NCBI GenBank assembly: GCA_903860135.1
Contig: CAIOPG010000008.1
Location: 64,127 to 128,126, forward strand
Direction of reading: 5' to 3'
DNA length: 64,000 nt
Source: Candidatus Omnitrophota bacterium
Lineage (GTDB): Bacteria > Omnitrophota > Gorgyraeia > Zapsychrales > Fredricksoniimonadaceae
This document shows positions 6,239 to 62,943 of the stretch, one piece after another. Position numbers and translations under genes: made by a program. Positions within the stretch are counted from its first letter, which is position 1, and each line of letters begins with the position of its first letter. The notes below the pieces were generated by a model. The model was not told the DNA's origin. It saw only the letters and a list, made by a program, of their open reading frames with translations, and made no database searches.

Positions 6239-9200
6239 TTATGACGGCAACAGGCTCTTGACCGGGGTGATGTTAAGGATCACCGGCCGAAACCCGCTCA
6301 CGCCATCAGCCTTGATCCGCGCCAACTCCGCCGGATCCACCGTAACCTTCATCCCCGCGCCCGTGCGCTCGACCTTGAGGTTCAGCTGAGCCGGGTCGAA
6401 GTCGATACCACCGGTGGCGGAATTGTCACGAACCTCACGCATCAAACTTTGCCGTTCCGCAGTCATCTTAACATGATTCAATGTCCACTGAACATCTCGA
6501 CTATTCACACTTGTTTTTCCATCTTGTCCCAGGAAATTCTTCATTGTTATCGGCTCAACACCCGACTCTCTACTGGCGGGAATAATTAGCCTAGGATTCG
6601 TCACAGCCATTTCATCAAACCTCCCATGAATAATGTCGGCAAACGACGTTCCTTTATAATCCGCGATAAGAGATCTGTTAACAAACCTCGGCCCCCCTGT
6701 ATGCACTAATGAAATAATGATTTCATTTTCATACAACTCTAATTTGCTAACCTTTTCCCATCCATTTGAAGAAATATCCCAAACAGTCGGCTCTTCGTTA
6801 CCAACCACCACCCCCTGCAATGCAACATTAGCAATTCCAGGTGCAGCCGTTAAAGGCATATTAATATCACTCTCTTGAAGTATAAAATCCTTAAGATGTA
6901 GGTTATCTGGGACAATAAACTTACTATTTTGAAGATAAGAATTTCCATCCAAAATTAATTTAACACGCTTTGTGGGATCTGGATTTCTAATCGTCACATT
7001 TTCTAAGATCACATGCGCCCCGTCAGGAACAACAAGCTCTATGGTTTCATCAATTTGCACACGGCCTATCCTCGTTTCTTTACCGGGCATACTTTTTGCT
7101 TTATCATGAAAACCTCTAATATACCGATCAACATTCCCATCATCCTGAAATCCATTAACTTGACCAACAAGAATTTTATCTTCCTTCACAGAAACAGGCT
7201 TTGTCACAGCTGTATAAAATTTCTGTTCCTCCGCTGATAACGTTGCAAAGAAAGCAGGATTATACTGTTTCCCAACTGTTAAATCAAAATAACTTCCAGG
7301 GAATATACGTGCTGACTGTCCATTCATTACCCCTTCCTTATACGCAACCTGCTGCTGATCAAAAGCATCCCCAGTGTAAACAAGCAAAAACGCATTAGGA
7401 ATAATGCTGTTTGTATCAATCTTCTTTAACATAAAAAGCATTTGAACAGGCGTAGGTTTTTCCTGAAATAGTTTTTGCACTCCCGTATTTGAATCTGCAA
7501 AGTTTTCCCCCAAATCATGCCATTTATTCTTTTTAATACGTGCAATAGCAGCAGCCAAAGCAGGTGATTTCTTAATGACTGCGTTTTCCGTAATTCCGTC
7601 TTCTTTACCGTCATTGGCTTGAACCAACTCATCCAAAGCTTGAAAAACAGCTTGTTTATCTTGCGGCGCGAAAACCTGTCCAGGAACGCCAAGAATAGTT
7701 ACCCCGAAATTTCCATCATTCTTAAGTTCTGATATTTGCCGAGATCCAACCTTGATACCACCCACAAAATTATATGTTCCATCAGATGCCGCCCAAACCA
7801 GTCGACGCTGAGCACCTTCACCAAAATGAAGCATTTGTGAACGAACGGCCAGGATTGTTTTCATCACTTCCAAATAATATCTTGACCCATTAGCCGTTGG
7901 GAAATTACCGATATGCCCATTTTTTACTGTCGGCGGACCGCCACGATCTTTCGTGCCACCATCTGTAATAATATTGACATTAGCATTTTTAAAAAATTCA
8001 TATCCCATTGTATTCTGCACCGCCTGCACCGCAGATGTCATCCCGCATCCATCCCCCCTCAAAACCTTAACAGACTCTTCAACACTCAAAAATATCTGCA
8101 CATACCCATTGTATTGTTGAGATATTTGTTTCATAAACTCAAGGTACGCAATATGCGAATTCTCAGAAGCTCTTTTAATATTAGTTACAAAATACTGCAC
8201 GCCTAAAACACCACTCTTTAGTGCCGCCTGAAAAACCGCATCATTACGATCAGATTTTTCCTGAGTCTCAAAAGAAAACGGTTCTTTAACTTTTAATTTC
8301 CTAGCTTCTTCCTCTGTTATTCCATTTTCAATATATTGACCAACAACATCCTGAACATCACTCACGCTCATTGTTGTTAAATCAATAGGCTTGGGAGGAT
8401 TCTCCGTCTTTGCTAAAAAAAGCGCTGGCTTTGTCTCTTTGGGGCCATCAAGCTCATTAACACGGGCTTCTTCATAAATCCTATCAATTGCCGAAATATC
8501 ATGCCGCTCTGCCGCTTGTATAATTTGCTGAGAATGACGATTATTTTTTTCATAAAACATCTTTATCTTCTCGATCTTTACCAACTGCTCTTTTTGTCCC
8601 GCCACATCATTATCATCCCAGCGATCAATTAAATGCCCAAATCCATTTTCAGCTGCAAAAAATAATGTTGCTCTTTCCGGCGCATCCACCTGAGAACGCT
8701 CAAAATGAACTTTCGCTCTTTCTGGCAAATTAGAGCTTTTAACAAACTCAACCTGCTCTTGTGGCGTCGCAGCCCTGTCAAATGTCGTCTGCGGCCTCGC
8801 TTCAGGCTTCCCTGGCTTCTGCGTAATAGCAACCTTAACACTACTCAAATCATGACCCGCATCAGCCGCATCCCGAACCTGTACCGGCAATTTTTCAGCC
8901 CTGTCAACCTTTTGAGCATTCTCCCGAACCTTTGCCGCTAGTTCCGTACCCTGAAACCCCCCCGAAAAATACTTGCGCGGGAGGGTTTCCTGGGTGACGG
9001 GGTCTACGTCTTCTTTGATGTAATTGAACACGCCTTCTTTATAGGCGGCGATGTAGCGTTGGTAGATCTTTTCTTTGTCGGTCTTGTCGAGGATATCGAC
9101 GCCGTCGACTTTGTTCTTGTCGGCATAAACCTGGCCGAGGAGGCTGTCTTTAAGGTTGTTCTTGTACCACATGGCCAGCACCATCGCCTGGTAAACCTGG

Positions 9201-10021
9201 CGCAGGAGGGCGAAGTTTTTGCCGGTGTTGATCTCTTTCTCGATTTCGGGGATCACGACCTGGCGCATGACGTCGCTCGCTGATCGGGCGGCGTCGCGGA
9301 TGTCGGCATTGTTCATCTGGCCCATGCCGGCGGCCGGATCCTTCATGTTCTGCTTGAGCGCCAGGTAATCTTCTTCCATCATGACCTTCATGCGCGTCGC
9401 ACCGAGGATCGCGGTATCACCCACCTCATAAACCTTGGCCTGATCGGGCATGATCCAGACTTTATTGAAGGTATTGGTCGGCAGGTCAGCGGTACCGAGC
9501 ACCTGGGTAACCCTGGCGTACACGCGTGACCAGAATTCCTTGCCCAGGTCTTTTTCAGGATAAATGAGTGAAGCGGTCAGCTGTTTGAGCACATAGTCCT
9601 GCGCCAGAAGGTCGCGGCCCATTTCAGTCTGGCCAAAGGCTTCAGGCACAATGCGGTCGTGTTCGTAGGGCGACAGGTTGACCCATAGGTCTTTTTCAGG
9701 GATGGTGAGCGAGGCAAGGAAATATTTAACGAGTTTTTCGGTTTCGGTCTTGATGAGCGCCTGATTGGCATCTGTATCGCCGCTGTCGACGATAAAATCA
9801 AACACCAGGGGCTGGTCAGGGTACACCTTGACCGCGCGCAGAGACACCGGCATATACGCGGCGCTCGGCAGAACCATGGCACCGGGCCTGGGCAGGTCCA
9901 TCACGCCCTGGGCATAACCGGCCGGCAGAAGGCCTGTCAGCATAAAGCAAACCACGACCACTGCGGCTACCGTTTTTCTTAATCCCCGACCACAAGACGT
10001 TCTGTCAAAATGACCCAACAT
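6239..10021 (-). CDS. giant secreted protein (1260 aa): signal peptide, conserved N-terminal module, AT-rich variable core, conserved ~55 aa C-terminal domain
   Basis: Signal-peptide-like N-terminus AAVVVVCFMLTGLLPAGYAQG. The N-terminal ~230 aa are homologous to ORF 23135..23902, with about 85-90% nucleotide identity over a ~160 bp stretch (9550-9700 vs 23500-23660). The C-terminal GGIDFDPAQLNL...GFRPVILNITPVKSL is shared with ORFs 22730..23050 and 63125..63964. GC is ~42% across 6480-8750 versus ~60% in the flanks. Confidence 0.7.
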   Translation of the reverse strand: MLGHFDRTSCGRGLRKTVAAVVVVCFMLTGLLPAGYAQGVMDLPRPGAMVLPSAAYMPVSLRAVKVYPDQPLVFDFIVDSGDTDANQALIKTETEKLVKYFLASLTIPEKDLWVNLSPYEHDRIVPEAFGQTEMGRDLLAQDYVLKQLTASLIYPEKDLGKEFWSRVYARVTQVLGTADLPTNTFNKVWIMPDQAKVYEVGDTAILGATRMKVMMEEDYLALKQNMKDPAAGMGQMNNADIRDAARSASDVMRQVVIPEIEKEINTGKNFALLRQVYQAMVLAMWYKNNLKDSLLGQVYADKNKVDGVDILDKTDKEKIYQRYIAAYKEGVFNYIKEDVDPVTQETLPRKYFSGGFQGTELAAKVRENAQKVDRAEKLPVQVRDAADAGHDLSSVKVAITQKPGKPEARPQTTFDRAATPQEQVEFVKSSNLPERAKVHFERSQVDAPERATLFFAAENGFGHLIDRWDDNDVAGQKEQLVKIEKIKMFYEKNNRHSQQIIQAAERHDISAIDRIYEEARVNELDGPKETKPALFLAKTENPPKPIDLTTMSVSDVQDVVGQYIENGITEEEARKLKVKEPFSFETQEKSDRNDAVFQAALKSGVLGVQYFVTNIKRASENSHIAYLEFMKQISQQYNGYVQIFLSVEESVKVLRGDGCGMTSAVQAVQNTMGYEFFKNANVNIITDGGTKDRGGPPTVKNGHIGNFPTANGSRYYLEVMKTILAVRSQMLHFGEGAQRRLVWAASDGTYNFVGGIKVGSRQISELKNDGNFGVTILGVPGQVFAPQDKQAVFQALDELVQANDGKEDGITENAVIKKSPALAAAIARIKKNKWHDLGENFADSNTGVQKLFQEKPTPVQMLFMLKKIDTNSIIPNAFLLVYTGDAFDQQQVAYKEGVMNGQSARIFPGSYFDLTVGKQYNPAFFATLSAEEQKFYTAVTKPVSVKEDKILVGQVNGFQDDGNVDRYIRGFHDKAKSMPGKETRIGRVQIDETIELVVPDGAHVILENVTIRNPDPTKRVKLILDGNSYLQNSKFIVPDNLHLKDFILQESDINMPLTAAPGIANVALQGVVVGNEEPTVWDISSNGWEKVSKLELYENEIIISLVHTGGPRFVNRSLIADYKGTSFADIIHGRFDEMAVTNPRLIIPASRESGVEPITMKNFLGQDGKTSVNSRDVQWTLNHVKMTAERQSLMREVRDNSATGGIDFDPAQLNLKVERTGAGMKVTVDPAELARIKADGVSGFRPVILNITPVKSLLPS

Positions 10022-22729: not shown

Positions 22730-23050
22730 TCACTTCCCCAATATCACCGAAAGACCTAGGAATTCCGAAAGACTTGCCAGCGGCTTAACGCCCATGATCA
22801 CCGGTGACACGCCGGAGGCGTTCTGCAGACGGGCAAGCATGGCAGGGTCGAGGTTGAATTCAATCGCCGGGCCATGGCTGTTGGTGGTCATGTTGATTTG
22901 GGAGGGATTGAGGTCGATACCGCCGGAGTGATTTACATTCATACTATTAGGAACATTTTTCGATGGTAATGCTTCAGGCATATTAATAACTTGCGTATAC
23001 AAATTAATTATATTGGGAAGTGATAAATCTCCTTTAAACTCAACATCCAC
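22730..23050 (-). pseudogene. remnant encoding only the conserved C-terminal module of the giant-protein family
   Basis: SGGIDLNPSQINM...NLDPAMLARLQNASGVSPVIMGVKPLASL aligns with the last ~55 aa of ORF 6239..10021. Upstream lies only ~85 bp of AT-rich filler before the N-module ORF. Confidence 0.4.
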
Positions 23051-23134
23051 ATACTTTGATCGTTTCTTATAAATCGAAGGATAATAAAAACGAATTTTTT
23101 TCCATCATCAGAAACAAACTCTTTGGCAACCGTT

Positions 23135-23902
23135 TCAATAAATAATCGTAACGCAGGACTGCCCTCCCCACGCTAGCGCGGGGGCGGGTGATAATTGGTT
23201 GATGCCCTGGGTCGCTTGCGTATCCGATAAAAAAGGGCGGGTCATGGCCCCGCCCCTACGTGAGAATTCATCATTTTCTGCGGTGGCCTTATAATCGGAC
23301 TCCAACATTACCTTTAACCTGGATTCAACGACGTAGGCGGCGTCTTGGTGTTCGTAGACGGTGGCTTTCTCGGGGGTGATCCAGACTTTGTTGAAGGTGG
23401 CGACGGGGATATCCGTGGTGCCGTAGCGTTTTAAGGCTTCGGCGTAGACTTTAGCCCAGAATTCCTTGCCGACTTTATCGTCGGGATAAATGACGGATGC
23501 GGTAATTTGTTTAAGAATATAATCCTGCGCCAAAAGGTCGCGGCCCATTTCGGTCTGGCCAAAGGCTTCGGGCACAATGCGGTCTTTTTCATACGGACTT
23601 AAATTCACCCACAGGTCTTTCTCGGGAACCGTGAGCGAGGCGAGAAAATATTTGATCAGGCGCAGGGAATCCCCTTCAGCCTTCGCATCCCCTTTATCCA
23701 AGATAAAATCAAAGCGGAAAGGGTCGTTCCGATACACCTTGATGCCCTTTAAAAGCGGCGGGGCAAAGACCGGGCTCAAAGCCAGGCGCGTACCCGGCGC
23801 GGGCAATGTCACCTGCGCATAAAGCCGTGCATCCGGCATGATCAATGCCGTGATCAGGATGCTGGCGATAAACTTATATAGTTTTACCCTGAAATTATAC
23901 AA
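23135..23902 (-). CDS. truncated paralog of the giant protein (signal peptide + conserved N-terminal module only)
   Basis: A TTG start at 23902 with a GAGGG SD gives a signal peptide KLYKFIASILITALIM. There is about 70% aa identity to residues ~60-280 of the giant protein, after which it diverges and stops. Confidence 0.5.
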   Translation of the reverse strand: MYNFRVKLYKFIASILITALIMPDARLYAQVTLPAPGTRLALSPVFAPPLLKGIKVYRNDPFRFDFILDKGDAKAEGDSLRLIKYFLASLTVPEKDLWVNLSPYEKDRIVPEAFGQTEMGRDLLAQDYILKQITASVIYPDDKVGKEFWAKVYAEALKRYGTTDIPVATFNKVWITPEKATVYEHQDAAYVVESRLKVMLESDYKATAENDEFSRRGGAMTRPFLSDTQATQGINQLSPAPALAWGGQSCVTIIY

Positions 23903-24063
23903 AATTATCCCTCTATTGATATAAATGAACCCAACCTTAATGATAAAGATAACATATATAAGCGAATGCAATATGTTGGACAAATTGGCAATTGAATTGA
24001 CAATTTGTCCAGTGCAGGAAATCTTGGGGAATGCTTTATGATTAAATCAGGGGAAATAAATCT

Positions 24064-45345: not shown

Positions 45346-46590
45346 TCAGAAATTTAACATCATCTCTTTTATATCCGCAGACGTTTTAGTCTCTGATAAT
45401 AACACGGAGCGACGGGCCATGTCGGTTCGTGCTGTGTCGACGTGTGCGGCGAGGGCGGCAATAAGTTCCTTGTAGGCCAACACGTCGGAACGGTCTGCCC
45501 TTGCGACCCTGCGGGCATACGTCAGCACTTGTTGCTTGTCACGCACGATCTGCCGGAATTCACTGGACAGGGCGGGATCAGCAAGGCAATAGTTCAGGTA
45601 TTCATCCGCCTGGAGGTAAAGCCCGTCCACTTCGGCAAAAGCCCCAGCATCGGCCAATTTCAGGATCATGATCCCCTGCGGCACATCAGCCAGCAGGTCG
45701 ACCCCGGCCAGGGTGCGCGCCGTAACAGGAACGCCAGACCATGATAATTCTTCCAAGGCTGCCGTTGTCCCCTTACCGGTGGCGCGGAACTTGGCCAGTG
45801 CCTCACGCCAGCGACGCGCCTTGACCTCCCTCGCTTCATTGAATGCCTGAACGAAGGTCTTGACCGGAAACACCTCTTTATAACTATCCTCGGAAAGCAC
45901 CCGATCACCGGTGATCCCAATGACCTGGTCAATGCGTCTTTGATCAAGTCCCAGGCGACCGAGCGCCTGCGCCACCACATGGATGCGCCGCCTCCCGTCG
46001 GACAATGATACGGTGCCGTCTAAACTGGCCAGCGCGTCAAAAGGCCGAACGGATTTCTGGCACACCCGCATGGCCTCGACCAACCCCAAGCCCTGATTGG
46101 CCTTGAGGCACTCCCGCTCCGACTGCCGGCTCAATCGCTCCGCCGGGCCTTCAGCGCCGCGTTCGATCTCGGACAGCCGCGCCGACTCCATGGCAAGCCG
46201 CTCGTAAGCGGCCATGCGGTAATGTTTAAGAACATCAGCGGTCACGGGGCTTGAGTATTCAAGTAATAGCAAAGGATGCCGGAGCGAAACATAACTCTGG
46301 TAATCCTTATCCTGCCGCAGGTTCTTGATTAAATATTTATCGAAGGCCGCGTCAAGGTCGCGCAAGGCACTCGGGCGTGTCATCCCCTCGACCGCAAGCG
46401 CTTTAACCTCGGACATCTTCTCCTGATGCCCGACCTGGTCGATGCCAGGCGTGCGAAAATAATAATCTGCCTGATCCTCTTTCAGGGCTTCGCGGAGCAC
46501 CGTATCCGCCGGACGGACACGTTCAAAAATATCGGCGTGCGCCAACGGCATGGCCGGCAGCATCAGCAAAAACAGGATCAAGCCTCTCAT
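45346..46590 (-). CDS. periplasmic T4SS accessory protein, TraH/PFL_4711-like (tentative); last gene of the T4SS/T4P operon
   Basis: Signal peptide MRGLILFLLMLPAMPLAHA. It follows traU as in F/G-type mating-pair-formation (MPF) systems. No direct motif was confirmed. Confidence 0.4.
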   Translation of the reverse strand: MRGLILFLLMLPAMPLAHADIFERVRPADTVLREALKEDQADYYFRTPGIDQVGHQEKMSEVKALAVEGMTRPSALRDLDAAFDKYLIKNLRQDKDYQSYVSLRHPLLLLEYSSPVTADVLKHYRMAAYERLAMESARLSEIERGAEGPAERLSRQSERECLKANQGLGLVEAMRVCQKSVRPFDALASLDGTVSLSDGRRRIHVVAQALGRLGLDQRRIDQVIGITGDRVLSEDSYKEVFPVKTFVQAFNEAREVKARRWREALAKFRATGKGTTAALEELSWSGVPVTARTLAGVDLLADVPQGIMILKLADAGAFAEVDGLYLQADEYLNYCLADPALSSEFRQIVRDKQQVLTYARRVARADRSDVLAYKELIAALAAHVDTARTDMARRSVLLSETKTSADIKEMMLNF

Positions 46591-46874
46591 TCCGGCAGCC
46601 TCTCCAGGATACGCTGAGCCGCGGCGATCTTCTTGAGACGTTCTTTCTGCCACGCGAGGTATTTCAGCGCTGTTGTTGCATTGGGGTCATCGAGAAAAGC
46701 CTCGACGACCGCTGGCGGCGCGAAACCTCTTTCCACCCATAAAGGATCCGGGAACGAAGGCTTAGCCTGGGCATTTTCTTTAACGGCAAAATATTCGATC
46801 CGGCCGATGCCGTAAAGATCCGCCGCGACCACCGACGGGAAGGCCGCACAGCCCACGATCAAAACAAGCAACAT
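46587..46874 (-). CDS. small periplasmic protein (TrbC/TraW-like position, tentative)
   Basis: Signal peptide MLLVLIVGCAAFPSVVAA; ATGA overlap with the downstream gene. Confidence 0.35.
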   Translation of the reverse strand: MLLVLIVGCAAFPSVVAADLYGIGRIEYFAVKENAQAKPSFPDPLWVERGFAPPAVVEAFLDDPNATTALKYLAWQKERLKKIAAAQRILERLPE

Positions 46875-47722
46875 TCTTTTTTTCGCCAGTAGATCCACAC
46901 AAACCTCCCGTCGCGTGCGTTCACGCCATTGTCCCATAAGGCCGGATCTGCCCCGACAGCCATGCAGCGCTGCTTGACCGGCGACACCATCTGCAAGCGG
47001 TCAAAACGGACATCCGGCCAGAAAAGCACCGGGGCTACAACCTGATGCGGTGTCTGAGGTTTTAGCGCCGCGATATCAACCGCCCTGAAAGCCGCCACCG
47101 CAGAAGCCGTGGCCGGGCTGGCGTGCACCACAAACCCGGTGCGCGGATAAAGCGGCCCCCAGACCCCCAGACATAACCCCGGGAATAAAGCACCGTAACG
47201 CGCACAGACAGGGGCGACCTTAGCGGTCATCTGCGCCAGGGGATGCTTCATCTCGTAACGCGCGCGCCGCCATTCATCCCTGTCCTGTTCACTGATATAA
47301 CTGATCGCACTCCCCAAATCCGGCAGACCTTCACACGGGGCTTCGACCATGAGTGAAAAGGTATCTGAAAAAGGAAACCCGAAAACATGGGCCTCGTTCA
47401 GGTGAAGATTGGTCGTATCGGCTTGTCCCGCGGCCCCGCACGCAGAGGCCTCTGCCCGCGAACCGGCCATAGCGGCCACAACAGACTTATATTCCATGAT
47501 GCCCGATACCCCGGAACGTCGGGTGGTTTCAACCAGCAAGACCGGCTGCCAGTAACGGACCTTGGCTCCTACAAAGGGCGGTGAATTCCTCCGGCAAACG
47601 CCGAGCACCTGGAACCTGACACACGGCCAGTCCGCCTGGGCTGCCAAAGCAACAAGGCTTTCATCGGCTGTCACCGGAACAACAGTAAAAGTCAAAAGGA
47701 TCAGGGCAATGATGGCTTGCAT
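46859..47722 (-). CDS. traU: conjugal transfer protein TraU family
   Basis: Signal peptide and conserved Cys residues. The C-terminus VWIYWRKKECCLF matches the F TraU C-terminus ...MWRKRNCVFL. Confidence 0.7.
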   Translation of the reverse strand: MQAIIALILLTFTVVPVTADESLVALAAQADWPCVRFQVLGVCRRNSPPFVGAKVRYWQPVLLVETTRRSGVSGIMEYKSVVAAMAGSRAEASACGAAGQADTTNLHLNEAHVFGFPFSDTFSLMVEAPCEGLPDLGSAISYISEQDRDEWRRARYEMKHPLAQMTAKVAPVCARYGALFPGLCLGVWGPLYPRTGFVVHASPATASAVAAFRAVDIAALKPQTPHQVVAPVLFWPDVRFDRLQMVSPVKQRCMAVGADPALWDNGVNARDGRFVWIYWRKKECCLF

Positions 47723-47723
47723 A

Positions 47724-48611
47724 TCACGACCTTATGATCCAGTACAACGCCATCGACGGCTGAACGTTGTTGTGCGCAAGGCCGCCCCCGGCTGCTGCTG
47801 TGACGCCCGCGCGCTGGGATGTGAGTAACGGGGAAGAACTCCCATCGTACCGACTGCCCGTCCAAGGTGATTCGTTATAGCCGTGCGTGTGCGCCGGCAT
47901 TTCGGCGATGGTCAACCGATGCGCTTCTTCACCGAAGATCCCGCCCAGCGAACGCCCCCGGGTATCGGTCATGACATTGGCCGCAGAGCCGCCCATATTA
48001 TCAAGCCCCACGACCGTGCGTCCGCGCAAATCAGGCAGATTGAACGTTGTTGACCCGTTGCCTGGACCATAGGTGGTGCCGATCACAGCGAACAATCCCG
48101 TATAATCCGCGCGCGCCACAGCGCGGCCGTCACAGATCAGCCAGCCTGAGGGCAGTGTCCCCGCAGGCCACGGCACGATCGTCCCGGCCGCTGCCAGTGA
48201 TTCCGTCCCCGGCGGTGTTACCTTGAGATTGACCCGTGTTCCGTTGATAACCGGCATCGGCAATAACACGGCTGTCGCTGACGCAAGGTCCGCCGGTAAA
48301 GTCGTGGTCAAATTTAGAAGCGCCCCCGCCTTCTGAACTTCATAAAGGTTCCCAAAAGGATTCCTGGTGCTCCAGGCTGTGTCTAGGAATCCGGCCGTAC
48401 GCAAAGCATCAAGGCTGTCAGGCCATTGTTGTTTTTCGATATAATACGCGCGCGCAACCTCGGCGATCTGGGACATCTCCATCGCCGTCTTTCTGGCCGC
48501 TTCCAAGCGCACCCCGCGGACAAAATCAGGGACGACCGCGCCGGCCAGGATCATGGCCATGGCCAGGGCCAGCGACAATTCGATCAAGGTGAAACTCCGT
48601 CTACGGTGCAT
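47724..48611 (-). CDS. minor pilin with class-III prepilin N-terminus fused to a phage tail-collar (MdpB-like) domain; candidate pilus-tip adhesin
   Basis: RRRSFTLIELSLALAMAMIL prepilin leader/helix. The C-terminus carries the LICDGRAVARADYTGLFAVIGTTYG...FNLPDLRGR...AHTHGY tail-collar signature. Confidence 0.6.
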   Translation of the reverse strand: MHRRRSFTLIELSLALAMAMILAGAVVPDFVRGVRLEAARKTAMEMSQIAEVARAYYIEKQQWPDSLDALRTAGFLDTAWSTRNPFGNLYEVQKAGALLNLTTTLPADLASATAVLLPMPVINGTRVNLKVTPPGTESLAAAGTIVPWPAGTLPSGWLICDGRAVARADYTGLFAVIGTTYGPGNGSTTFNLPDLRGRTVVGLDNMGGSAANVMTDTRGRSLGGIFGEEAHRLTIAEMPAHTHGYNESPWTGSRYDGSSSPLLTSQRAGVTAAAGGGLAHNNVQPSMALYWIIRS

Positions 48612-49050
48612 GCTTATTCCTTTGTTGGTATAATAACCGCGCCGCTTGGCCATGATCCTTTCCAATCGACAGACGGATCAGGTCCCAGGAGCCCCTGGAC
48701 TGAACCACAAACCCGTATCTCCCGGCGTCTGCTTTGGCCGTTCCGGCGGGAACCTCGGTTTCGATCCACAGGCGCCGCGCGTCTGAAGCAAAGGTGTACG
48801 CACGGCCCCAGCTATTATTTTCCGGCATCCTGGGAAGCACCCCATGGATCTCCTGCCACGCGGCAGGCCATACCCCCTGAAGGCTGGCGTATTGACGGCC
48901 AGCCTCAAGAAAAGCCGCCATATCATTGACCGTGCGCCGGGCACGGGCCATGGCCACCGGTTTACCGGCAGAACAGAGAACCCCGCCGGCCACGGCCACG
49001 AGCAAGACGCACGTCAACGACAATTCCAGCAAGCTGGCCGCGCGCTTCAT
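48601..49050 (-). CDS. minor (pseudo)pilin
   Basis: MKRAASLLELSLTCVLLVAVAGG is a prepilin-like N-terminal helix. Confidence 0.5.
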   Translation of the reverse strand: MKRAASLLELSLTCVLLVAVAGGVLCSAGKPVAMARARRTVNDMAAFLEAGRQYASLQGVWPAAWQEIHGVLPRMPENNSWGRAYTFASDARRLWIETEVPAGTAKADAGRYGFVVQSRGSWDLIRLSIGKDHGQAARLLYQQRNKHAP

Positions 49051-49496
49051 CAAAACGTGGCTTTCCATACCTTGCCTGCCTGGTCGTAATTAGTCGCTTC
49101 CGCTCGCGATAGAAACGTACTGGTCAATTCAGCACCCGCCGACGCAGGGACGCTGGCGAGCGCAATGTCCACCCGCGTATTATCCGCCGCGTTCGCCGCC
49201 ACGGTGTAATCACCGCCAAAGCTATTGGCAAGGGCAGGATCAAAGTTGTTGGGCAACAGGCCGGCAGTCTTGAGCGTCCCTACGCTAACGCCGGTATAGG
49301 TGAGATTCTGCCCCGAAAGATAATTCTGCGCAGCGATGCGCAAACTGTCGACCGCCTGCGCCTCCCGCTGAAGGCGGCATTTATTCATCATCCCGCCACC
49401 GGCGGCCACAACGCTCACAAGGACACCCATGAGCCCTATGGCTATCGCCAGTTCCATCAAAGAAAATCCCCGGTTATAACGTGCGTTCCTCTTCAT
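49050..49496 (-). CDS. major type IV pilin (class III signal peptide)
   Basis: MKRNARYNRGFSLMELAIAIGLMGVLVSVVA has a G|FSLMEL cleavage/methylation motif. The start was moved; the track ORF is 64 aa too long. Confidence 0.7.
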   Translation of the reverse strand: MKRNARYNRGFSLMELAIAIGLMGVLVSVVAAGGGMMNKCRLQREAQAVDSLRIAAQNYLSGQNLTYTGVSVGTLKTAGLLPNNFDPALANSFGGDYTVAANAADNTRVDIALASVPASAGAELTSTFLSRAEATNYDQAGKVWKATF

Positions 49497-49510
49497 CTTC
49501 CCCTCCTGGT

Positions 49511-50572
49511 TTACGGTTTCAACACACCAATGTGTGTCAGATTGGCATAAATAGGTTTCAAGAATGCAAGTGCCATGAGCATGACAAAGAACGCCGCTAC
49601 GCCCAGCAAGGCCGGCTGAAGTGTTGCCGCCAGCAGGCCGACGCGCGTTTCGAAGGAACGATAATAAAATTTGAACACACGCTCGCAATATTCATCGTAA
49701 TGCCCGGTTTCCTCGCCGAGCCTGACAGTTTCAACAACCAGCCGCGGGAAATATTTTCCAACAGCCAAAGCAGCTGAAAACGTATGCCCTCCGGCAAGGT
49801 ATTGCCGGCAGTGTTTTAATTCCATCCCGGTTCTGTTGACAGCCGCGGCCGCCGCCTCCGTGAGGGCGGTGTCGAGCGGAATACCACTGCGCAACAGCAC
49901 AAAGATATCGAAAAAACACAAGGCGATCTCGAGGTCCCGGTGCGCCCGGCCAACCAAAGGAAGTTCATTCAAAAAGGCATGCCATTGATCAGGATAGCGT
50001 GAGATCAATCCCATCATGGTCAGCCCCAGGACTGCGGTCCCACCAAACAACCATCCCCCCGCGTGCACGATGAAAGCGCTGAAAGTGATAAGGGCGCGTG
50101 TCAACCAATTATCCAAGGCCTCCGGCGGTAACAGCGGCGCCAGTTGGGGCACAACGGCCTGTGCCATATAAATGAGCACCACCAAAAGAAGCCCGATGAC
50201 GCTTGCCGGATAAATAACCGCCTGAAGGCATTTATCCTTTAAACGCGCGGACAGGTCAAAATGATCCGCCAGAAGCCCCATGACCAAAGGTAGATTCCCG
50301 GCATGCTCGCCAGCCTTAACCGCATTTAAAGCCAAACGAGGGAAAAGGCCTGTTTGCCCCATGGCCTGTGCCAACGGGCGGCCTGCGGCAAGTTCAAGGA
50401 GCATCACCGCACAACCCCGCGACAACCGTGGATCAAGGACAGCTTCTTTGAGTGAACCCAGGGCATGGTTAAGGGCAATGCCCGCCACCAGCATATTGGC
50501 AAGGTCCCTGAAGAAAAACGACAGACGTGCGGCCGGGACAGCCCTTGGCGGTAACAAGAACAACGCTGTCAT
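49511..50572 (-). CDS. type II secretion/type IV pilus platform protein (GspF/PilC/PilR family)
   Basis: 353 aa polytopic membrane protein with duplicated GspF-like cytoplasmic domains; directly downstream of the ATPase. Confidence 0.7.
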   Translation of the reverse strand: MTALFLLPPRAVPAARLSFFFRDLANMLVAGIALNHALGSLKEAVLDPRLSRGCAVMLLELAAGRPLAQAMGQTGLFPRLALNAVKAGEHAGNLPLVMGLLADHFDLSARLKDKCLQAVIYPASVIGLLLVVLIYMAQAVVPQLAPLLPPEALDNWLTRALITFSAFIVHAGGWLFGGTAVLGLTMMGLISRYPDQWHAFLNELPLVGRAHRDLEIALCFFDIFVLLRSGIPLDTALTEAAAAAVNRTGMELKHCRQYLAGGHTFSAALAVGKYFPRLVVETVRLGEETGHYDEYCERVFKFYYRSFETRVGLLAATLQPALLGVAAFFVMLMALAFLKPIYANLTHIGVLKP

Positions 50573-52197
50573 CGCACCACCCGCGCAGCCTCTTCGGGCG
50601 CGATGACCCCTTCGCGCACAAGCCGGCAGGCATCGGCGTGCATGGTGATCACGCCGGGCCTGGCCCTGACTTTCAAGAAGATCTCGTTGACCAGCCCCTG
50701 CTCGATCATGAAACGTATTTCATCATCGATGAACAAGGTTTCCGCCACCACGGTCCGCCCCCGATAACCGTCAAAACACCAGGGGCATCCCCGCGGATCC
50801 GCCCGATGAATGATCTGCCCCGGCCCGTTGACAAAAGCCTGTTCCGCCTCGCCGAGGAGCAGCGGCGTCACAAATTCCTCGATCCGGCAATGCGGACAAA
50901 GCTTGCGCACCAGCCGCTGGGCGACAACACACTTCAGGGTGCTGGCGATATAACTGTTATCCACTCCCAGGTCACGCAGGCGCAAGATGGCACTTACGGC
51001 ATCACGGGTATGCAGTGTTGAAAAGACCTTGTGCCCCGTGATCGCCGCACGCACGGCTTCTTTGGCCGTCTTTTCATCGCGGATCTCGCCGATCAGGATG
51101 ATATCCGGGTCATGCCGCAGAAAGGCCCGTGCCAACTGATGGAAATCATGCCCTTTACGGATATCGACCGGCACCTGGGTCACCAGCGGCAATTTGATCT
51201 CAACCGGATCTTCCGCCGCCACAACCTTGATCCCGACAGCCTTGACATGATTGAGCATGGCATAAAGGCTGGTGGTCTTGCCACAACCGGTAGGCCCGGT
51301 CAAGAGCACGATACCGCCGGGGCTTTTAACCGCACGCTCAATGACACGGCAATGCCCCGGGGCATAACCCAGGCTTTCCAGGGGCACGGCCGAGCGTGTT
51401 TTATCGAGAAGCCTCAGTACGAGCGAGGCCCCGTTGACCGACGGTATGTGCGAAAGCCGGATATCCATCCGGCGGTTGCCGCACACATGATCAAAGCGCG
51501 CGTCATGCAGTTTCATGAAATCGCCCGCGCTGATCTCGGCACGATTAAAGAATATGTTCACGATCCGTGCATGATCCCCGCGCGCGAAAGAACGGTGAAA
51601 GCGCAGGACCCCGTCGAGACGCAAGCGCACTTCGACCGAGTCTCCCGAAGGTTCGATGTGGATATCCGTTGCGCCCAGATCGATCGCTTCTTCCAGAAGG
51701 CTGTCCGCGGCATCCTGGACACCGCGTGTGCCGGCCTCAACAGCCCCTTGCTGCGCCTTCACGAAATGGGCCGCCCCCGCCGCAATGGTATCGCTATTGC
51801 CAATAAAGAACCGCACCTCCGAACCGAACACCGACACCACCTGATCCGTTGCCCGGGTATCATACGGGTCCGCAAGGACAAAAACGGTCCCCGCCGTATC
51901 GGTGCAAGGTAAAACCAGATGCTCCTGCATGAAAGCCCCGCCCAACCGGCTCGCCGCCGCTTGATCGAGGCACGCCGCACCTTCATAAACCGGCCAGCCT
52001 GATTGCTCGGACAATCCGGCCATCAGGTCTTCCTCACGCACAAGCGCATACTGACGCAAGATGTTCCCGAGGCGTTCGCGCCCCGCTGAAGACGCCTGCA
52101 CCCCAAGGCCCAACGCCACATCGCCCGACGTCAGGGCGCCCCGCCTTACCAGCAATGCTCCCAAGGGTTCGGGTTTCATCCGTCGTGCCGTTATCAT
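50569..52197 (-). CDS. type II/IV secretion system ATPase (GspE/PilB/PilQ-R64 family)
   Basis: Walker A LLTGPTGCGKTTSLYAML, a tetracysteine motif (CPHC...CPWC), and a GspE N-domain. Confidence 0.85.
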   Translation of the reverse strand: MITARRMKPEPLGALLVRRGALTSGDVALGLGVQASSAGRERLGNILRQYALVREEDLMAGLSEQSGWPVYEGAACLDQAAASRLGGAFMQEHLVLPCTDTAGTVFVLADPYDTRATDQVVSVFGSEVRFFIGNSDTIAAGAAHFVKAQQGAVEAGTRGVQDAADSLLEEAIDLGATDIHIEPSGDSVEVRLRLDGVLRFHRSFARGDHARIVNIFFNRAEISAGDFMKLHDARFDHVCGNRRMDIRLSHIPSVNGASLVLRLLDKTRSAVPLESLGYAPGHCRVIERAVKSPGGIVLLTGPTGCGKTTSLYAMLNHVKAVGIKVVAAEDPVEIKLPLVTQVPVDIRKGHDFHQLARAFLRHDPDIILIGEIRDEKTAKEAVRAAITGHKVFSTLHTRDAVSAILRLRDLGVDNSYIASTLKCVVAQRLVRKLCPHCRIEEFVTPLLLGEAEQAFVNGPGQIIHRADPRGCPWCFDGYRGRTVVAETLFIDDEIRFMIEQGLVNEIFLKVRARPGVITMHADACRLVREGVIAPEEAARVVR

Positions 52198-52655
52198 CGG
52201 ACCTCCAGCAAGCTTTCATGCCCGTCTTGCGTCACCATGGTGATCTCCGTCGCGGATATTTTCTTGATGATCCTGTCCGCGCAACGATCGCCTTCTTGCC
52301 AACGCTTGAGCACGCCGTCCACATCCACCACCGCTTCCTTGCGCGTCCCGGTGATGGCTATATAACGCACATGAATATTGGGCTCCGTTCCGGCTTGTTC
52401 GTGCGGCTTTCGGGTTTCCCCGCCGCCTGAAAGCCCGGCGAGTTCGAGTGAAACTTTTTTGCGCTCAAGTTCAAGCTTCAAGCGCTCCACATCCAGATGC
52501 AGTAACTGCAGTTCTTCCTCCCTGGCGCGCTCCGTGTCAACACGCCCCCGCATCTTTTCGAGCGTTGCCGTCCCGTCGTCAACAGCCGGTCCGGCCGCCA
52601 GTGCCGCGCTGGCGAACATGAAGATCAAGCAAATGCTCCCCACCTGTTTTTTCAT
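52194..52655 (-). CDS. pilus assembly protein, PilP-like periplasmic beta-domain protein
   Basis: Signal peptide MKKQVGSICLIFMFASAALA, a coiled-coil, and a C-terminal beta domain. Confidence 0.45.
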   Translation of the reverse strand: MKKQVGSICLIFMFASAALAAGPAVDDGTATLEKMRGRVDTERAREEELQLLHLDVERLKLELERKKVSLELAGLSGGGETRKPHEQAGTEPNIHVRYIAITGTRKEAVVDVDGVLKRWQEGDRCADRIIKKISATEITMVTQDGHESLLEVR

Positions 52656-53161
52656 GATGCCCCCTCCTGAAGTCCAACAATAATAACTTCCATCTCGAGC
52701 GTATCTTTTGTTCCCTTTATACGACGGATCACCGCCGTCCCCTTCTCTTCTATCCCTGAGAAAGCCCTCAGCATCGAAAAGAAGGCACTCCGGCTCTGTA
52801 GCCCCGTGCAATGCACATTTAGCGGCAGTTGCTGCACCCCCGCCCAGGGAGAAGCTTCCACCGCGCGGCGCATATCCCCTTGAACCATGCCCGGGACGAT
52901 CACCGTGCAGGCCGTATGCTCCGAGCGCCCGATTACATAAATGTCATTGATAAACCCGGCGTACGCCTCTTTAAAAATATCTTTCGGGGGTGTGCGCTCC
53001 AGCACGGCACAAGCTTTAAGCTCCTCGTTCAGACGGCGTGTCTCGTGCAGCGTTTGGGCCAGTGCCACGTTCTTTCTGGCCGCACGATCCCGAGCGGCAT
53101 AGCCTGTCACTAAGCCCGCAACCAGCAACAGGCTTCCGGCAAAGATCACCAGCAGCCTCAT
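52652..53161 (-). CDS. pilus assembly protein, PilO-like (TM + periplasmic domain)
   Basis: N-terminal TM MRLLVIFAGSLLLVAGLVTGY; ATGA overlaps on both sides. Confidence 0.45.
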   Translation of the reverse strand: MRLLVIFAGSLLLVAGLVTGYAARDRAARKNVALAQTLHETRRLNEELKACAVLERTPPKDIFKEAYAGFINDIYVIGRSEHTACTVIVPGMVQGDMRRAVEASPWAGVQQLPLNVHCTGLQSRSAFFSMLRAFSGIEEKGTAVIRRIKGTKDTLEMEVIIVGLQEGAS

Positions 53162-54231
53162 GGTGCTCTCCTTTCTTCGGCCGGGCAGGTAGAAAATACA
53201 GCACGGATCTTCAACCCCGGCTTATCCTCTATCACAATAGCCTCGCTGACAGCTTCCGTAAAAAGCCCATGGCCTGAAAAAGGGAAAACCTGTTTTTGTT
53301 CAAACACAAGCTCACCTGTGAAGATCCACCCGTCGCTCTGCCCGCGTTCAAACGTAACTGAACTGACCCGGCTCTCCAAAGGCAAGCCCTCCATAAACTG
53401 ACGGGACACATCAAAAAAATCAACGCGCGGCCATTGCCTGAGGCGCGCCTGATAGGTCACGATCGACACCTCTTTCAAGGCCGGCACACCACCGGCTCTT
53501 TGATCAGTAGCCTCCTGTGCCGCCGTGTCAACCGCCTGTTCAGACATGACCGCGCTCCAGCCATACCCGATACCGGCCAAGGCCATCAGCAACGCCATCG
53601 CCCCTGCACCCAACAAGCCCCGCCGGTCTGCCTGCCGCTGCCTTGCGGCCGCATCTTCCGGTGCCATCAAATGCACCGCGAACCTGACCGTACCCAACAC
53701 CTCAAAAGCCGGGAATAATGTTTCAAAGAAAACTACATTTTCTTTATCTTCCGCGCTCAACACCTCGATCACGGCGGCGTCATTGCCCAGCAAGCAGCAG
53801 GCCGCCGTCGGCAGCCCTTCGATCAAATTCTTGCGGGAACGCCGCACTTCCTCGGCGATCCGCTCCGCGTTCTGTGGCAGGAGCACCCGTGTTTCCACGG
53901 CCTCACGCGTGTTATAGGCCGTGAGCAAATACCTGTCGCCGATGTTGTCAATCACGATCATGGGCTGTTCGGCCGGGACCAAATTCTGCCCCCAAAGATA
54001 AGCCCGCAACGCCAGGCTGTACGGCACAAATGTCCTGATCCCGCCGCGCGGGAAAGCCCGGCTGATACGCCGGATCATGGCCGGCTGATCCTCCGTCGAC
54101 AGCACCAGCAGGACATGCGCCTCCTTATCTGCAACATGCGCAGAAGCCATAAAATCATCAACCGTCATGCAGGTCGGGTCATCCCCGCAGGCAAAGTAAA
54201 CATTCCCGTTCTGAAAAAGATAGCGTCCCAT
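53158..54231 (-). CDS. pilus assembly protein, GspL/PilM-PilN-like (cytoplasmic domain + TM + periplasmic domain)
   Basis: 357 aa with a central TM GLLGAGAMALLMALAGIGYGW. It follows the secretin, in the position of R64 PilO. Confidence 0.45.
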   Translation of the reverse strand: MGRYLFQNGNVYFACGDDPTCMTVDDFMASAHVADKEAHVLLVLSTEDQPAMIRRISRAFPRGGIRTFVPYSLALRAYLWGQNLVPAEQPMIVIDNIGDRYLLTAYNTREAVETRVLLPQNAERIAEEVRRSRKNLIEGLPTAACCLLGNDAAVIEVLSAEDKENVVFFETLFPAFEVLGTVRFAVHLMAPEDAAARQRQADRRGLLGAGAMALLMALAGIGYGWSAVMSEQAVDTAAQEATDQRAGGVPALKEVSIVTYQARLRQWPRVDFFDVSRQFMEGLPLESRVSSVTFERGQSDGWIFTGELVFEQKQVFPFSGHGLFTEAVSEAIVIEDKPGLKIRAVFSTCPAEERRAP

Positions 54232-54233
54232 AT

Positions 54234-55814: not shown

Positions 55815-55843
55815 GCCCTCTCCTTGATGTTCTTCCGCATCCT

Positions 55844-58291: not shown

Positions 58292-58680
58292 GGCTCCTTT
58301 ACCGGTAAGACCGGAACGATCGCTCGTCCGTCGGTGCTTTCCCCCGCAGGCCGCTCGATATACCAGTGCGGCTCATCGACCATGAGAAACGTCCAATGCC
58401 CGGCGACCATGGCGTCGCGGCCGTGGCCGCTCACATGCGCCGGGATCCATACTTTCCGGATGCGCGGGGGTTCATAGATCGGCCAATACGGTCGCACCAC
58501 GCCAGCCTCAGGCAAAAGCTCCACCCTGCCCGTAGCACCACCCTCGGCAGTGCCGCACGAATGGTGATAGATCTGTGCCAGCGTACGCGGCGCCTCCCCT
58601 TGCGCCGGGACTGCCTGACGGCCCGCGCAACCGCTAATCAGCGTAACGCACAGGCATAACAGCACTCTTCTTGAGCCCAT
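58288..58680 (-). CDS. T4SS lipoprotein (TraV/TIGR03751-like position)
   Basis: Lipobox LCLCVTLISGC. It lies immediately upstream of traC, as TraV does in F-like systems. Confidence 0.5.
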   Translation of the reverse strand: MGSRRVLLCLCVTLISGCAGRQAVPAQGEAPRTLAQIYHHSCGTAEGGATGRVELLPEAGVVRPYWPIYEPPRIRKVWIPAHVSGHGRDAMVAGHWTFLMVDEPHWYIERPAGESTDGRAIVPVLPVKEP

Positions 58681-59806: not shown

Positions 59807-60468
59807 CGCCGGACCACCATATAAATCCGCCCTTTCATCCGCGGGCCAAGCGTATCTTCCTCTGCCGCCACCGCCAGCAGGCCGGGATACGTTATCCGCT
59901 GCAACGGCAGTATGACCGGCGCATCCGTCACATTCTCAGCGGCGAGCACATACCCGGCGACCATGGGCCATTCATCGCTCCATAAAAGAACCAGCCTGAG
60001 CTGGGCATCCTCAAAAACCACCTGCCCGCCGTTGTGCCGCACAACCCCCTCCGGCTGACGCTCCTGCATCAAGGCCCGCATGGCCGCCATGACCGGATCC
60101 GTTCCCGCCGCTGGCCCTGCCGGCACGCGGCAATCCGCGATCGTCACCTTGTCATCGACCCCCTCACCAAAAACATACCTGACCCGGTGCGAACGCCCAT
60201 TGCTATCGAGGATGGTGATGCCCGCCGGCGCGGCTGTAAGCGGCGTCAGAAAAAGATGCCCCGCCGCGTGCTCCACCTTCACCGTTGCCGGATCACCCCA
60301 GCGCACAAGATCGGATATCCCATCCTCCATATAAATATCGACCATCTTGCCGACCTCCACCCGCACCGCTGTATCAGCCCCGGCGCAGATACGTTTTTCC
60401 GCCGCCGCGCCGCCCACCCCGCCGAGCAGGATCAGCCCTGCCACCAGACAATGCTCAACTCGGATCAT
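59803..60468 (-). CDS. traK: TraK/VirB9-like protein
   Basis: Signal peptide MIRVEHCLVAGLILLGGVGGAAA; placed between the TraE-like and TraB-like genes. The start was moved. Confidence 0.5.
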   Translation of the reverse strand: MIRVEHCLVAGLILLGGVGGAAAEKRICAGADTAVRVEVGKMVDIYMEDGISDLVRWGDPATVKVEHAAGHLFLTPLTAAPAGITILDSNGRSHRVRYVFGEGVDDKVTIADCRVPAGPAAGTDPVMAAMRALMQERQPEGVVRHNGGQVVFEDAQLRLVLLWSDEWPMVAGYVLAAENVTDAPVILPLQRITYPGLLAVAAEEDTLGPRMKGRIYMVVRR

Positions 60469-61368: not shown

Positions 61369-61371
61369 CTG

Positions 61372-62906: not shown

Positions 62907-62943
62907 AACCCCTCTCTCCACGTGTACGCCCATCAACCAGAGA

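Follow-up and report, generated by a model that had tools for sequence, protein, structure and literature searches.

The 64,000-nucleotide stretch analysed here (the window) contains three representatives of a modular protein family: an intact member, a degraded one that lacks cargo, and a 3' fragment, the last of these lying beside a hybrid operon of F-like T4SS and T4P genes (Table 1). Members of the family share a plan in which a signal peptide is followed by an N-terminal domain of approximately 320-330 aa (N-domain), a hypervariable middle region (the cargo), and finally a C-terminal domain opening with the motif GGID (C-domain). The middle region is missing from the smallest member and exceeds 3,000 aa in the largest. 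The tail of roughly 55 aa, found three times in the window, forms the C-terminal bookend of this single, very large and unannotated family.

Table 1. Bookend family features and the neighbouring operon in the window.
Feature	Position	Strand	Basis
Intact family member, 1260 aa (signal peptide, N-domain, variable cargo, C-domain)	6239..10021	-	ORF
C-terminal bookend domain copy 1, GGIDFDPAQLNLKVERTGAGMKVTVDPAELARIKADGVSGFRPVILNITPVKSLLPS	6242..6406	-	Profile and BLASTP; GC3 0.84
Variable AT-rich cargo, aa 356-1205	6407..8956	-	GC3 0.34
N-terminal bookend domain, about aa 38-355	8957..9910	-	Homologues and alignment; GC3 0.71
Predicted Sec-type signal peptide, aa 1-37, ...LLPAGYA/QG	9911..10021	-	Read from the sequence by eye
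C-terminal bookend domain copy 2 (remnant)	22733..22924	-	End of 106-aa ORF 22730..23050
Degenerate stretch with stop codons, in place of the second half of the N-domain	22925..23260	-	ORF map
First half of the N-domain, degraded member without cargo	23261..23881	-	Inside ORF 23135..23983
Hybrid operon, F-like T4SS and T4P genes, immediately downstream of copy 3	45346..62936	-	Pfam
C-terminal bookend domain copy 3, majority subtype GGIDFAQSNLDMQIKRDG...	63128..63304	-	End of 279-aa ORF 63125..63964
Cargo fragment, AT-rich, truncated member similar to P0100	63305..63964	-	GC3 0.35; P0100 alignment
Perfect 60-bp tandem duplication at the 5' end of the truncated ORF, beside the contig end	63832..63953	.	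Sequence

The 1260-aa protein returned no Pfam or NCBIfam match. Its signal region, as judged by eye, comprises a basic n-region, a hydrophobic core and a G-x-A site, a pattern that recurs in its homologues and is matched by a helix at residues 3-22 in the model of the minimal member P0221; its N-domain carries the motifs WVNLSPYE, MGRDLLAQDY and PRKYFSGG. The cargo has only two relatives among 5.8 billion proteins. An ortholog (P0290) is 73% identical in the N-domain, 45% in the cargo and 72% in the C-domain, and another member (P0169) matches the 1260-aa protein at 87% identity in the N-domain yet carries a different cargo.

The second copy belongs to a degraded gene. The ORF directly upstream of the apparent remnant aligns with residues 14-225 of the 1260-aa protein at 52% identity (E = 5e-72). 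When the region 22730-23983 is compared with the minimal family member (P0221, 438 aa), which consists of the N-domain, a 12-aa linker and the C-domain, the two align in one frame, with 67% identity in the N-domain (P0221 residues 6-220) and 47% in the C-domain, and P0221 residues 221-366 have no counterpart at the degraded locus. The third copy terminates a 279-aa ORF that is the 3' fragment of a family member, cut near the contig end, which lies 30-odd nt past the ORF and about 30 nt outside the window. Residues 63-273 of this ORF are 51% identical (E = 6e-61) to residues 649-868 of an 877-aa member with a full N-domain (P0100), the aligned part being the last quarter of the latter. The sequence-only reading had described the bearers of the tail as three otherwise unrelated proteins; the tails are real and significantly similar, but the N-domain, P0221 and P0100 alignments assign all three copies to one family, of which only one copy is intact.

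The three C-terminal sequences on which that reading was built are present in the window as quoted, and a profile constructed from them retrieved only those three from the six-frame translation of the window (E values of 4e-30 to 4e-28, the next match being at 0.18). In a BLASTP comparison of the 1260-aa and 279-aa proteins only the C-termini aligned, with 40% identity (E = 6e-8). Searched more widely, the C-domain profile matched 5,919 cluster representatives at E <= 1e-3, 2,639 of them at E <= 1e-10. Among the best 150 of the 5,919 matches, which range from 68 to 2,232 aa in length, the C-domain occupies the extreme C-terminus in every case (150/150), followed by a median of 4 and a maximum of 32 residues. 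It occurs once per protein in 164 of 171 matches and is always terminal. Across the whole phylum it is conserved at the amino-acid level, with a near-invariant GGID and invariant G, P and I columns. Short ORFs among the matches raised the possibility of a stand-alone small protein, which was rejected, as the exhaustive search and the genome loci showed these to be fragments or split genes.

The bookend family appears to be specific to Omnitrophota. Named matches to the C-domain profile belong to this phylum with three exceptions, and the 1,365 N-domain homologues found at E <= 1e-10 are, where named, almost all from Omnitrophota. The genome loci of the family were retrieved with the N-domain alignment, not with that of the C-domain; at least 580 stretches were confirmed in this way in species-representative genomes, and neighbourhoods were analysed in 80 loci (each ±10 kb). 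Nearly all of the genome loci are from Omnitrophota, and they revealed several copies per genome, including tandem arrays, and no conserved specific neighbour gene. The only candidate partner to emerge was a grouping by single linkage of generic two-component signalling domains, whose positions vary, and it was rejected. No public name or description of the family was found in the literature on the motif strings and on Omnitrophota protein families.

Neither domain matched a known family. Pfam and NCBIfam scans of four window proteins, 15 N-domain members and 29 C-domain members gave nothing meaningful, and searches of PDB sequences with both profiles likewise returned no meaningful match, the sole one listed (PilM, E = 0.19) being treated as noise. 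Modelled alone, a 60-aa C-domain forms a beta-hairpin and one helix at moderate confidence (pLDDT 72.2), with the most conserved C-terminal stretch devoid of secondary structure; the best Foldseek match of this model in the PDB had an E value of 0.74. The proposal that the C-domain is not a common known domain therefore agrees with the Pfam, NCBIfam, PDB-sequence and fold searches. A Big/Ig-like repeat, the identity that the sequence-only reading had named as contrary to its own proposal, found no Pfam match, and the domain is single-copy and terminal rather than an internal repeat. A tripartite sorting signal of the LPXTG, PEP-CTERM or GlyGly-CTERM type was also sought: the sequence past GGID is amphipathic or polar with no hydrophobic helix, the short tails have a high content of Ala, Ser, Gly and Pro, and no NCBIfam sorting-domain model matched the C-domain.

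The cargo is diverse, including AvrB_AvrC, receiver domains with a cNMP-binding domain, HEAT, ankyrin, NUDIX and HAD types. A syntenic gene in a metagenome locus (L082) provides a direct view of its exchange: compared with copy 3, its C-domain is 90% identical in amino acids and 81% in nucleotides, the cargo is unrelated, and homology ends at window position 63307, the start of GGID. Together with the position of the domain in the best 150 of 5,919 matches, this locus bears out the earlier proposal of a conserved, strictly C-terminal module on swapped cargo. The base composition described earlier, a C-domain of host-like GC next to AT-rich upstream sequence, also holds: GC3 is 0.71 in the N-domain, 0.34 in the middle and 0.84 in the C-domain of the 1260-aa gene, and 0.35 in the body and 0.69 in the C-domain of the 279-aa ORF. 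A recurrent D-x-A-M motif was considered as a DNA-level feature (an internal start or a recombination site) and rejected, as codon usage at the motif varies.

The C-domain is closely tied to the N-domain. Among C-domain matches of at least 400 aa, 70 of 87 contain the N-domain, and the remainder look like 5'-truncated fragments. The 80 genome loci contain 63 ORFs with both domains. Each of the seven closed ORFs with only the C-domain directly follows, on the same strand, an ORF with only the N-domain, and these are therefore regarded as split genes; the remaining eight C-only ORFs run off the start of the locus, with their N-terminal part beyond view. Among the ORFs that could be judged in these loci, the C-domain never occurs without the N-domain. 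Since it always accompanies this domain of about 320 aa, it is no free-standing tag. The divergence of the two domains is correlated (r = 0.60, a value reached in 0 of 500 permutations). Both bookends are inherited together, and recombination at the domain boundaries exchanges the middle.

The reading that we favour, at roughly even odds (about 0.5), is that the C-domain acts with the N-domain as a terminal sorting, anchoring or processing module across the whole family, and is not dedicated to the operon adjacent to copy 3. According to this scheme, Sec would take the proteins across the inner membrane, after which the terminal C-domain would serve as a sorting, anchoring or processing module of the cell envelope. 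The conserved hydrophobic strand VPVILNIxP may dock onto a partner, since it is predicted to be unpaired in the model of the isolated C-domain. GGID, located at the cargo junction, is a candidate processing site, cleavage there being conjectural. The two bookends together would display or deliver a polymorphic cargo that includes effector-like and signalling domains.

The obligate coupling of the C-domain to the N-domain is equally well accounted for by a single co-folding scaffold, in which the two bookends fold as one unit, the cargo is an insertion in a permissive loop, and the C-domain is one structural half of a display or polymer subunit rather than a signal; flagellins are built in this way. 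Such an arrangement would explain why no C-domain that can be assessed lacks an N-domain and why the two diverge in step, although the correlation is expected from plain co-inheritance as well. An insert varying from 0 to more than 3,000 aa, and the natural existence of a minimal member with only a 12-aa linker, are also consistent with it. The model of this minimal member has a moderate pLDDT of 69.5 and a mixed alpha/beta N-domain; isolated beta-bridges predicted close to where the N-domain ends (residues 335 and 342), together with short C-domain strands, suggest that the two domains might pair. However, the C-domain is predicted with no greater confidence in the full-length model (pLDDT about 70-78) than alone (about 72-83), and the linker between the domains has a pLDDT below 50. 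The strictly terminal position and the invariant GGID at the junction are, moreover, more typical of terminal signals. On balance, the scaffold is a genuine possibility, less probable than the sorting, anchoring or processing module.

Several known systems offer partial parallels to the family. Like the T9SS CTD (Por_Secre_tail) of Bacteroidota, the bookend family combines an N-terminal Sec signal with an extreme C-terminal domain on hundreds of diverse cargo proteins, has many paralogues per genome, and shows a conserved junction that may be a processing site. In contrast to the T9SS CTD, which is a beta-sandwich of about 80 aa, the bookend C-domain is about 55 aa long, consists of a hairpin and a helix in a moderate-confidence model, and is always paired with a 320-aa N-domain, in Omnitrophota. 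No window copy and none of the 29 aligned members matched the Pfam or NCBIfam models (E <= 5), and no counterpart of a PorU/PorV-type partner was identified for the family.

Flagellins, among them giant and enzymatic forms, keep their N- and C-termini conserved on either side of a hypervariable central insert. In the bookend family, similarly, both ends are conserved and co-inherited, the middle extends from none to very large and may carry enzymes, and insert-less minimal members exist. There is nevertheless no homology, and the Flagellin_N and Flagellin_C profiles gave no match. Flagellins use the flagellar T3SS, whereas the bookend proteins carry Sec signal peptides (by eye); the flagellin N-terminus is a coiled coil, whereas the bookend N-domain, about 320 aa long, is of mixed alpha/beta type. 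Two-partner-secretion, CdiA and Rhs proteins share with the family a conserved N-terminal module, possibly for export, and swappable polymorphic parts, and the likeness extends to tandem arrays, orphan fragments, composition mosaics and effector-like cargo such as AvrB_AvrC. In all of these groups, however, the variable part is a C-terminal tip followed by an immunity gene, whereas bookend proteins vary internally and keep a conserved C-terminus. Pfam gave no TPS, Rhs or haemagglutinin match for the window proteins, and the 80 family loci showed no conserved small downstream gene.

The sequence-only reading had proposed that the C-domain is a substrate tag for the neighbouring hybrid T4SS/T4P machine. 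Such a tag could serve, for example, in secretin or pilus export of periplasmic substrates. The operon includes a collar-domain minor pilin (47724-48665) and a secretin (54234-55877), and its gene order is kept in 31 metagenome loci. The window, L082 (TraC 76% identical) and the more distant L088 (TraC 49% identical) each have a co-oriented family gene directly upstream of the operon; this amounts to three of the seven operon loci with a readable upstream region and to two independent lineages, with no family gene upstream in the other four. Conversely, TraC, TraE, TrbI, TraU, TraK and pilins occur in none of the 80 family loci (±10 kb), in which a secretin was found once and a T2SSE-type ATPase four times. 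The two other copies in the window lie far from the operon, beside dnaK/dnaJ and miaA, and the family numbers thousands of clusters against 31 operon relatives (the searches are not strictly comparable).

The type of targeting signal also bears on this proposal. Family members start with a basic n-region, a hydrophobic core and an ...A/Q site (judged by eye), and Sec-type signal peptides do not fit a T4SS substrate recruited from the cytoplasm. Judged from these sequences, the peptides would still be compatible with periplasmic export through a secretin, and a secretin-bearing machine could take Sec-exported proteins from the periplasm. Type IVb pili provide precedents for periplasmic substrates in TcpF and CofJ, as does the Ptl T4SS in pertussis toxin. 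The likeness to TcpF, CofJ and T4SS effectors lies in one copy adjoining a T4P/T4SS operon and in the ability of type IVb pili to secrete Sec-exported proteins. The C-domain differs from both kinds of signal, those of type IVb pilus substrates being N-terminal and C-terminal T4SS signals being short, charged and carried by cytoplasmic proteins. Giant Omnitrophota genes have been reported next to T2SS/T4P-like loci (10.1101/2023.11.21.568195), which is in keeping with a link. A tag specific to this operon is unlikely in view of the 80 family loci; the upstream family gene in three of the seven informative operon loci leaves room for a functional link.

That the conserved ends are kept mainly as DNA homology arms for cassette exchange of the middle, in the manner of antigenic-variation systems, with little protein-level function for the C-domain, would suit the GC3 mosaic along the genes, the recombination breakpoints exactly at domain boundaries and the tandem arrays, but is very improbable given the phylum-wide amino-acid conservation with invariant GGID, G, P and I columns, and given that the three copies in this genome are only 36-40% identical in protein and hence share no usable DNA homology.

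A broader and more speculative version of the sorting, anchoring or processing module can be formulated tentatively. The N- and C-domains might constitute a hitherto unrecognised, phylum-specific export and display pathway for a huge repertoire of rapidly exchanged cargo in predatory or episymbiotic Omnitrophota, with GGID and the recurrent D-x-A-M as putative processing sites that release the cargo, and with the hybrid T4SS/T4P operon, habitually headed by one member, possibly serving as one outlet.

The Omnitrophota comprise ultra-small bacteria that are uncultured and are probably predators or dependent on a host; what is said of their biology derives almost entirely from genomes, and their large proteins are mostly unannotated. 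A single family with thousands of members represents a sizeable share of this unannotated sequence, and its description provides two annotation profiles, a candidate processing motif to be sought in proteomes, and a defined group of likely effectors, surface-located or secreted. The family is also a probable contributor to the broken state of Omnitrophota assemblies: many N-domain matches carry a partial annotation, and of 105 N-domain ORFs, 29 run off the end of the contig or locus. If the bookends do mark a dedicated sorting route, they would represent a new terminal-domain sorting system outside Bacteroidota.

The sequence-only reading had described a domain of about 55 residues at the C-terminal ends of three otherwise unrelated proteins, and all three C-termini were found at the ends of the ORFs listed in the table. 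A profile built from the three copies matched only these sites in a six-frame translation of the window, with E-values from 4e-30 to 4e-28 (next match 0.18), and BLASTP of the 1260-aa against the 279-aa protein aligned the tails alone (40% identity, E = 6e-8); the tails are thus genuinely alike, beyond what chance would give. The AT-rich composition reported upstream of the domain was likewise recovered, GC3 being 0.71, 0.34 and 0.84 in the N-terminal part, middle and C-domain of the 1260-aa gene, and 0.35 and 0.69 in the body and C-domain of the 279-aa ORF.

Window features considered in the analysis
Feature	Window coordinates	Strand	Remarks
C-domain copy 1	6242-6406	minus	end of 1260-aa ORF 6239..10021
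C-domain copy 2 (remnant)	22733-22924		end of 106-aa ORF 22730..23050
C-domain copy 3	63128-63304		end of 279-aa ORF 63125..63964
Hybrid T4SS/T4P operon	45346-62936	minus	gene order kept in 31 metagenome loci (L082-L112)

The carriers of the domain, in contrast to what had been proposed, are related. Residues 14-225 of the 1260-aa protein are 52% identical to ORF 23135..23983, which directly precedes the remnant (E = 5e-72). The stretch 22730-23983 also aligns in a single reading frame with P0221, a 438-aa database protein made of an N-domain, a 12-residue linker and the C-domain, at residues 6-220 (67% identity) and 367-426 (47%). With stop codons present and the second half of the N-domain missing, this locus is a degraded family member without cargo. 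Gene calls of a close NCBI MAG with WCI27_ tags likewise contain the remnant C-domain (22730-22980) as a 59-83 aa ORF (P0001 and P0026), and the degraded copy thus seems to be kept across related genomes rather than arising from a single-assembly error. The 279-aa ORF is a 3' fragment of a family member: its residues 63-273 match the C-terminal quarter of P0100 (51% identity, E = 6e-61), which has 877 aa, a signal peptide and a full N-domain, and some 30 nt separate the ORF from the end of the 128-kb metagenome contig, of which the window is the final 64 kb. The AT-rich 5' end of this truncated ORF contains a 60-bp sequence perfectly duplicated in tandem (2.0 copies; 63832-63953), about 50 nt from the window end and about 80 nt from the contig end, which may reflect either misassembly or a recent duplication event. 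Two probable toxin-antitoxin pairs flank the intact family gene: a PemK/MazF-type toxin-like ORF (4467-4820) and the small ORF upstream of it (4817-5053), both on the minus strand and recognised by eye, and a PhdYeFM antitoxin with a PIN toxin (about 18096-18841; 1181-1926 of family locus L001), taken from precomputed Pfam annotation.

When searched exhaustively against 1.84 billion cluster representatives, the C-domain profile matched 5,919 proteins at E ≤ 1e-3 and 2,639 at E ≤ 1e-10. Among the matches listed (the best 150 of 5,919; 68 to 2,232 aa), the domain formed the extreme C-terminus in 150/150, followed by a median of 4 and a maximum of 32 residues, as the suggested positional bias implied. 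Full-length matches share one layout, namely an N-terminal signal, a conserved N-domain of about 320 aa (motifs WVNLSPYE, MGRDLLAQDY and PRKYFSGG), a middle without similarity from member to member, and the C-domain. Their N-termini are basic, then hydrophobic, and end in ...A|Q, which, judged from sequence only, is a Sec-type signal peptide. The N-domain is present in 70 of the 87 listed matches of at least 400 aa, and the remainder look like 5'-truncated fragments. Searched alone, the N-domain profile retrieved 1,365 proteins at E ≤ 1e-10, many flagged 'partial'; all but three of those naming an organism belong to Candidatus Omnitrophota or Omnitrophica, and species-representative genomes contain at least 580 N-domain-coding stretches.

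Eighty family loci were retained from Omnitrophota MAGs, some labelled 'uncultured Planctomycetales' and one only 'bacterium'. Single MAGs often hold several loci, and tandem arrays of two to four members are common. Both domains occur on 63 ORFs, while 29 N-domain ORFs run off the contig or locus end. Every closed ORF with a C-domain alone (7/7) is immediately preceded on its strand by an ORF holding an N-domain alone, so these are split genes; the other eight C-domain-only ORFs extend past the locus start, where the N-terminal part is unreadable. Across the 80 loci, no C-domain was found on a protein demonstrably devoid of an N-domain. The divergence of the two domains is correlated (r = 0.60, reached by 0/500 permutations). 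Some members exceed 3,700 aa; at L005, L008, L015, L017, L018, L035 and L063, ORFs that open with an N-domain are still uninterrupted after more than 3,680 aa, where the retrieved locus ends, and at L018 a C-domain closes an ORF of 3,306 aa or more whose immediate downstream neighbour is a second member of 3,682 aa or more. Like the 279-aa ORF, a large share of family genes (N-domain matches; L003, L007, L009, L022, L023 and others) are partial and located at contig ends, and the conserved bookends probably break short-read Omnitrophota assemblies.

The C-domain is not a common known domain: Pfam and NCBIfam gave no match for the window proteins or aligned family members, PDB sequence searches with the family profiles returned nothing, and the best Foldseek match to the C-domain model had E = 0.74. 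The family is not described in the Omnitrophota literature examined, including work on giant proteins, and its motif strings are absent from the relevant literature searched.

Cargo exchange, as the retention of a module on swapped cargo had implied, is real. At L082, a metagenome locus with an operon syntenic with that of the window (TraC 76% identical), the position of the 279-aa ORF is taken by an intact 780-aa member. Its C-domain is 90% identical to copy 3 in protein and 81% in DNA, compared with 69-73% for the adjoining operon genes; homology ends at 63307, exactly at the C-domain start, and the cargos are unrelated. Database protein P0169 and the 1260-aa protein share 87% identity in the N-domain, and their sequences part ways after about residue 403. 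P0290, the true ortholog of the 1260-aa protein, is 73%, 45% and 72% identical in N-domain, middle and C-domain, and only two relatives of this cargo exist among 5.8 billion proteins. Over 58 genome loci, mean GC3 is 0.51 in the N-domain, 0.43 in the middle and 0.51 in the C-domain. Recognised cargo domains include AvrB_AvrC, receiver in combination with cNMP-binding, HEAT, ankyrin, NUDIX and HAD. P0047 (1381 aa) carries two domains of the type III effector family AvrB_AvrC (residues ~826-920, E = 3e-15), and P0088 (1805 aa) a cNMP-binding domain and two response-regulator receiver domains; these three domain types normally work in a cytoplasm and here occur in proteins bearing signal peptides. 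A further motif, D-x-A-M (mostly DAAM), recurs in the variable regions (P0038, P0050, P0055, P0067, P0088 and others; L002-L081), one set containing 181 copies where 12.6 are expected and a second 152 where 19.3 are expected; it is absent from the 1260-aa protein. Copies concentrate in the first 30 aa behind the N-domain and the last 20 aa ahead of GGID, and their median spacing is about 240 aa. Because the motif is encoded by varying codons, the constraint acts on the protein, and the motif could be a processing site or an inter-module linker.

The family's layout, the terminal placement of the C-domain, its coupling to the N-domain, the confinement to Omnitrophota and the replacement of cargo at domain boundaries are shown by these data. 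As to function, the C-domain may act after Sec export, together with the N-domain, as a terminal sorting, anchoring or processing module (probability about 0.5), since it lies strictly at the protein end, GGID is nearly invariant at the cargo junction, and a conserved hydrophobic strand is unpaired in the stand-alone model (pLDDT 72). This model comprises one beta-hairpin and one helix, and the most conserved stretch, DG-L-VPVILNIxP, lacks secondary structure. The main alternative, tentative by comparison, is that the N-domain and C-domain co-fold as one scaffold into which cargo is inserted as a loop, a layout likened to that of flagellins.

It is improbable that the C-domain is a substrate tag for the neighbouring machine, as first suggested. 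The hybrid character of that operon was confirmed; its order is orf417, TrbC pilin, TraE, TraK, TrbI, TraV, TraC, secretin, orf357, orf205, T2SSE, T2SSF, PilS-type pilin, collar-domain pilin and TraU, the Trb and Tra proteins being F-like T4SS components and the secretin, T2SSE, T2SSF and the latter two pilins T4P components. No coupling protein or relaxase was found among the ORFs scanned. The order is retained down to 46% TraC identity, and the operon is in itself a conserved composite machine. Most evidence speaks against a tie to the family: T4SS genes or pilins lie within 10 kb of family genes at 0/80 loci, a secretin at 1/80 and a T2SSE ATPase at 4/80, no other specific conserved neighbour gene was found across the 80 loci, and the other two window copies adjoin dnaK/dnaJ and miaA. 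The region upstream of the operon's first gene was readable in seven instances, the window included; in three of these (the window, L082 and L088, whose TraC is 49% identical) a family gene of the same orientation terminates directly before that first gene, and in four (L083, L093, L098 and L103) there is none. These three cases, from two independent lineages, are suggestive of a functional link but too few to establish one. Sec-type signal peptides argue against classical cytoplasmic recruitment by a T4SS and may be compatible with periplasmic export through the secretin. Export from the periplasm has precedents in TcpF and CofJ with type IVb pili and in pertussis toxin with Ptl; in TcpF and CofJ the signal is N-terminal. 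Least probable is that the conserved ends are purely DNA-level homology arms, since paralogues from one genome share only 36-40% protein identity, and yet the key residues do not vary throughout the phylum.

The three window copies are thus the tails of a phylum-wide, previously unannotated bookend family, and not a secretion tag on unrelated proteins; the proposed tie to the adjacent machine lacks support from most of the evidence. Under the sorting, anchoring or processing reading, each family protein would first be exported via Sec, and its C-domain would then serve with the N-domain as the terminal module.
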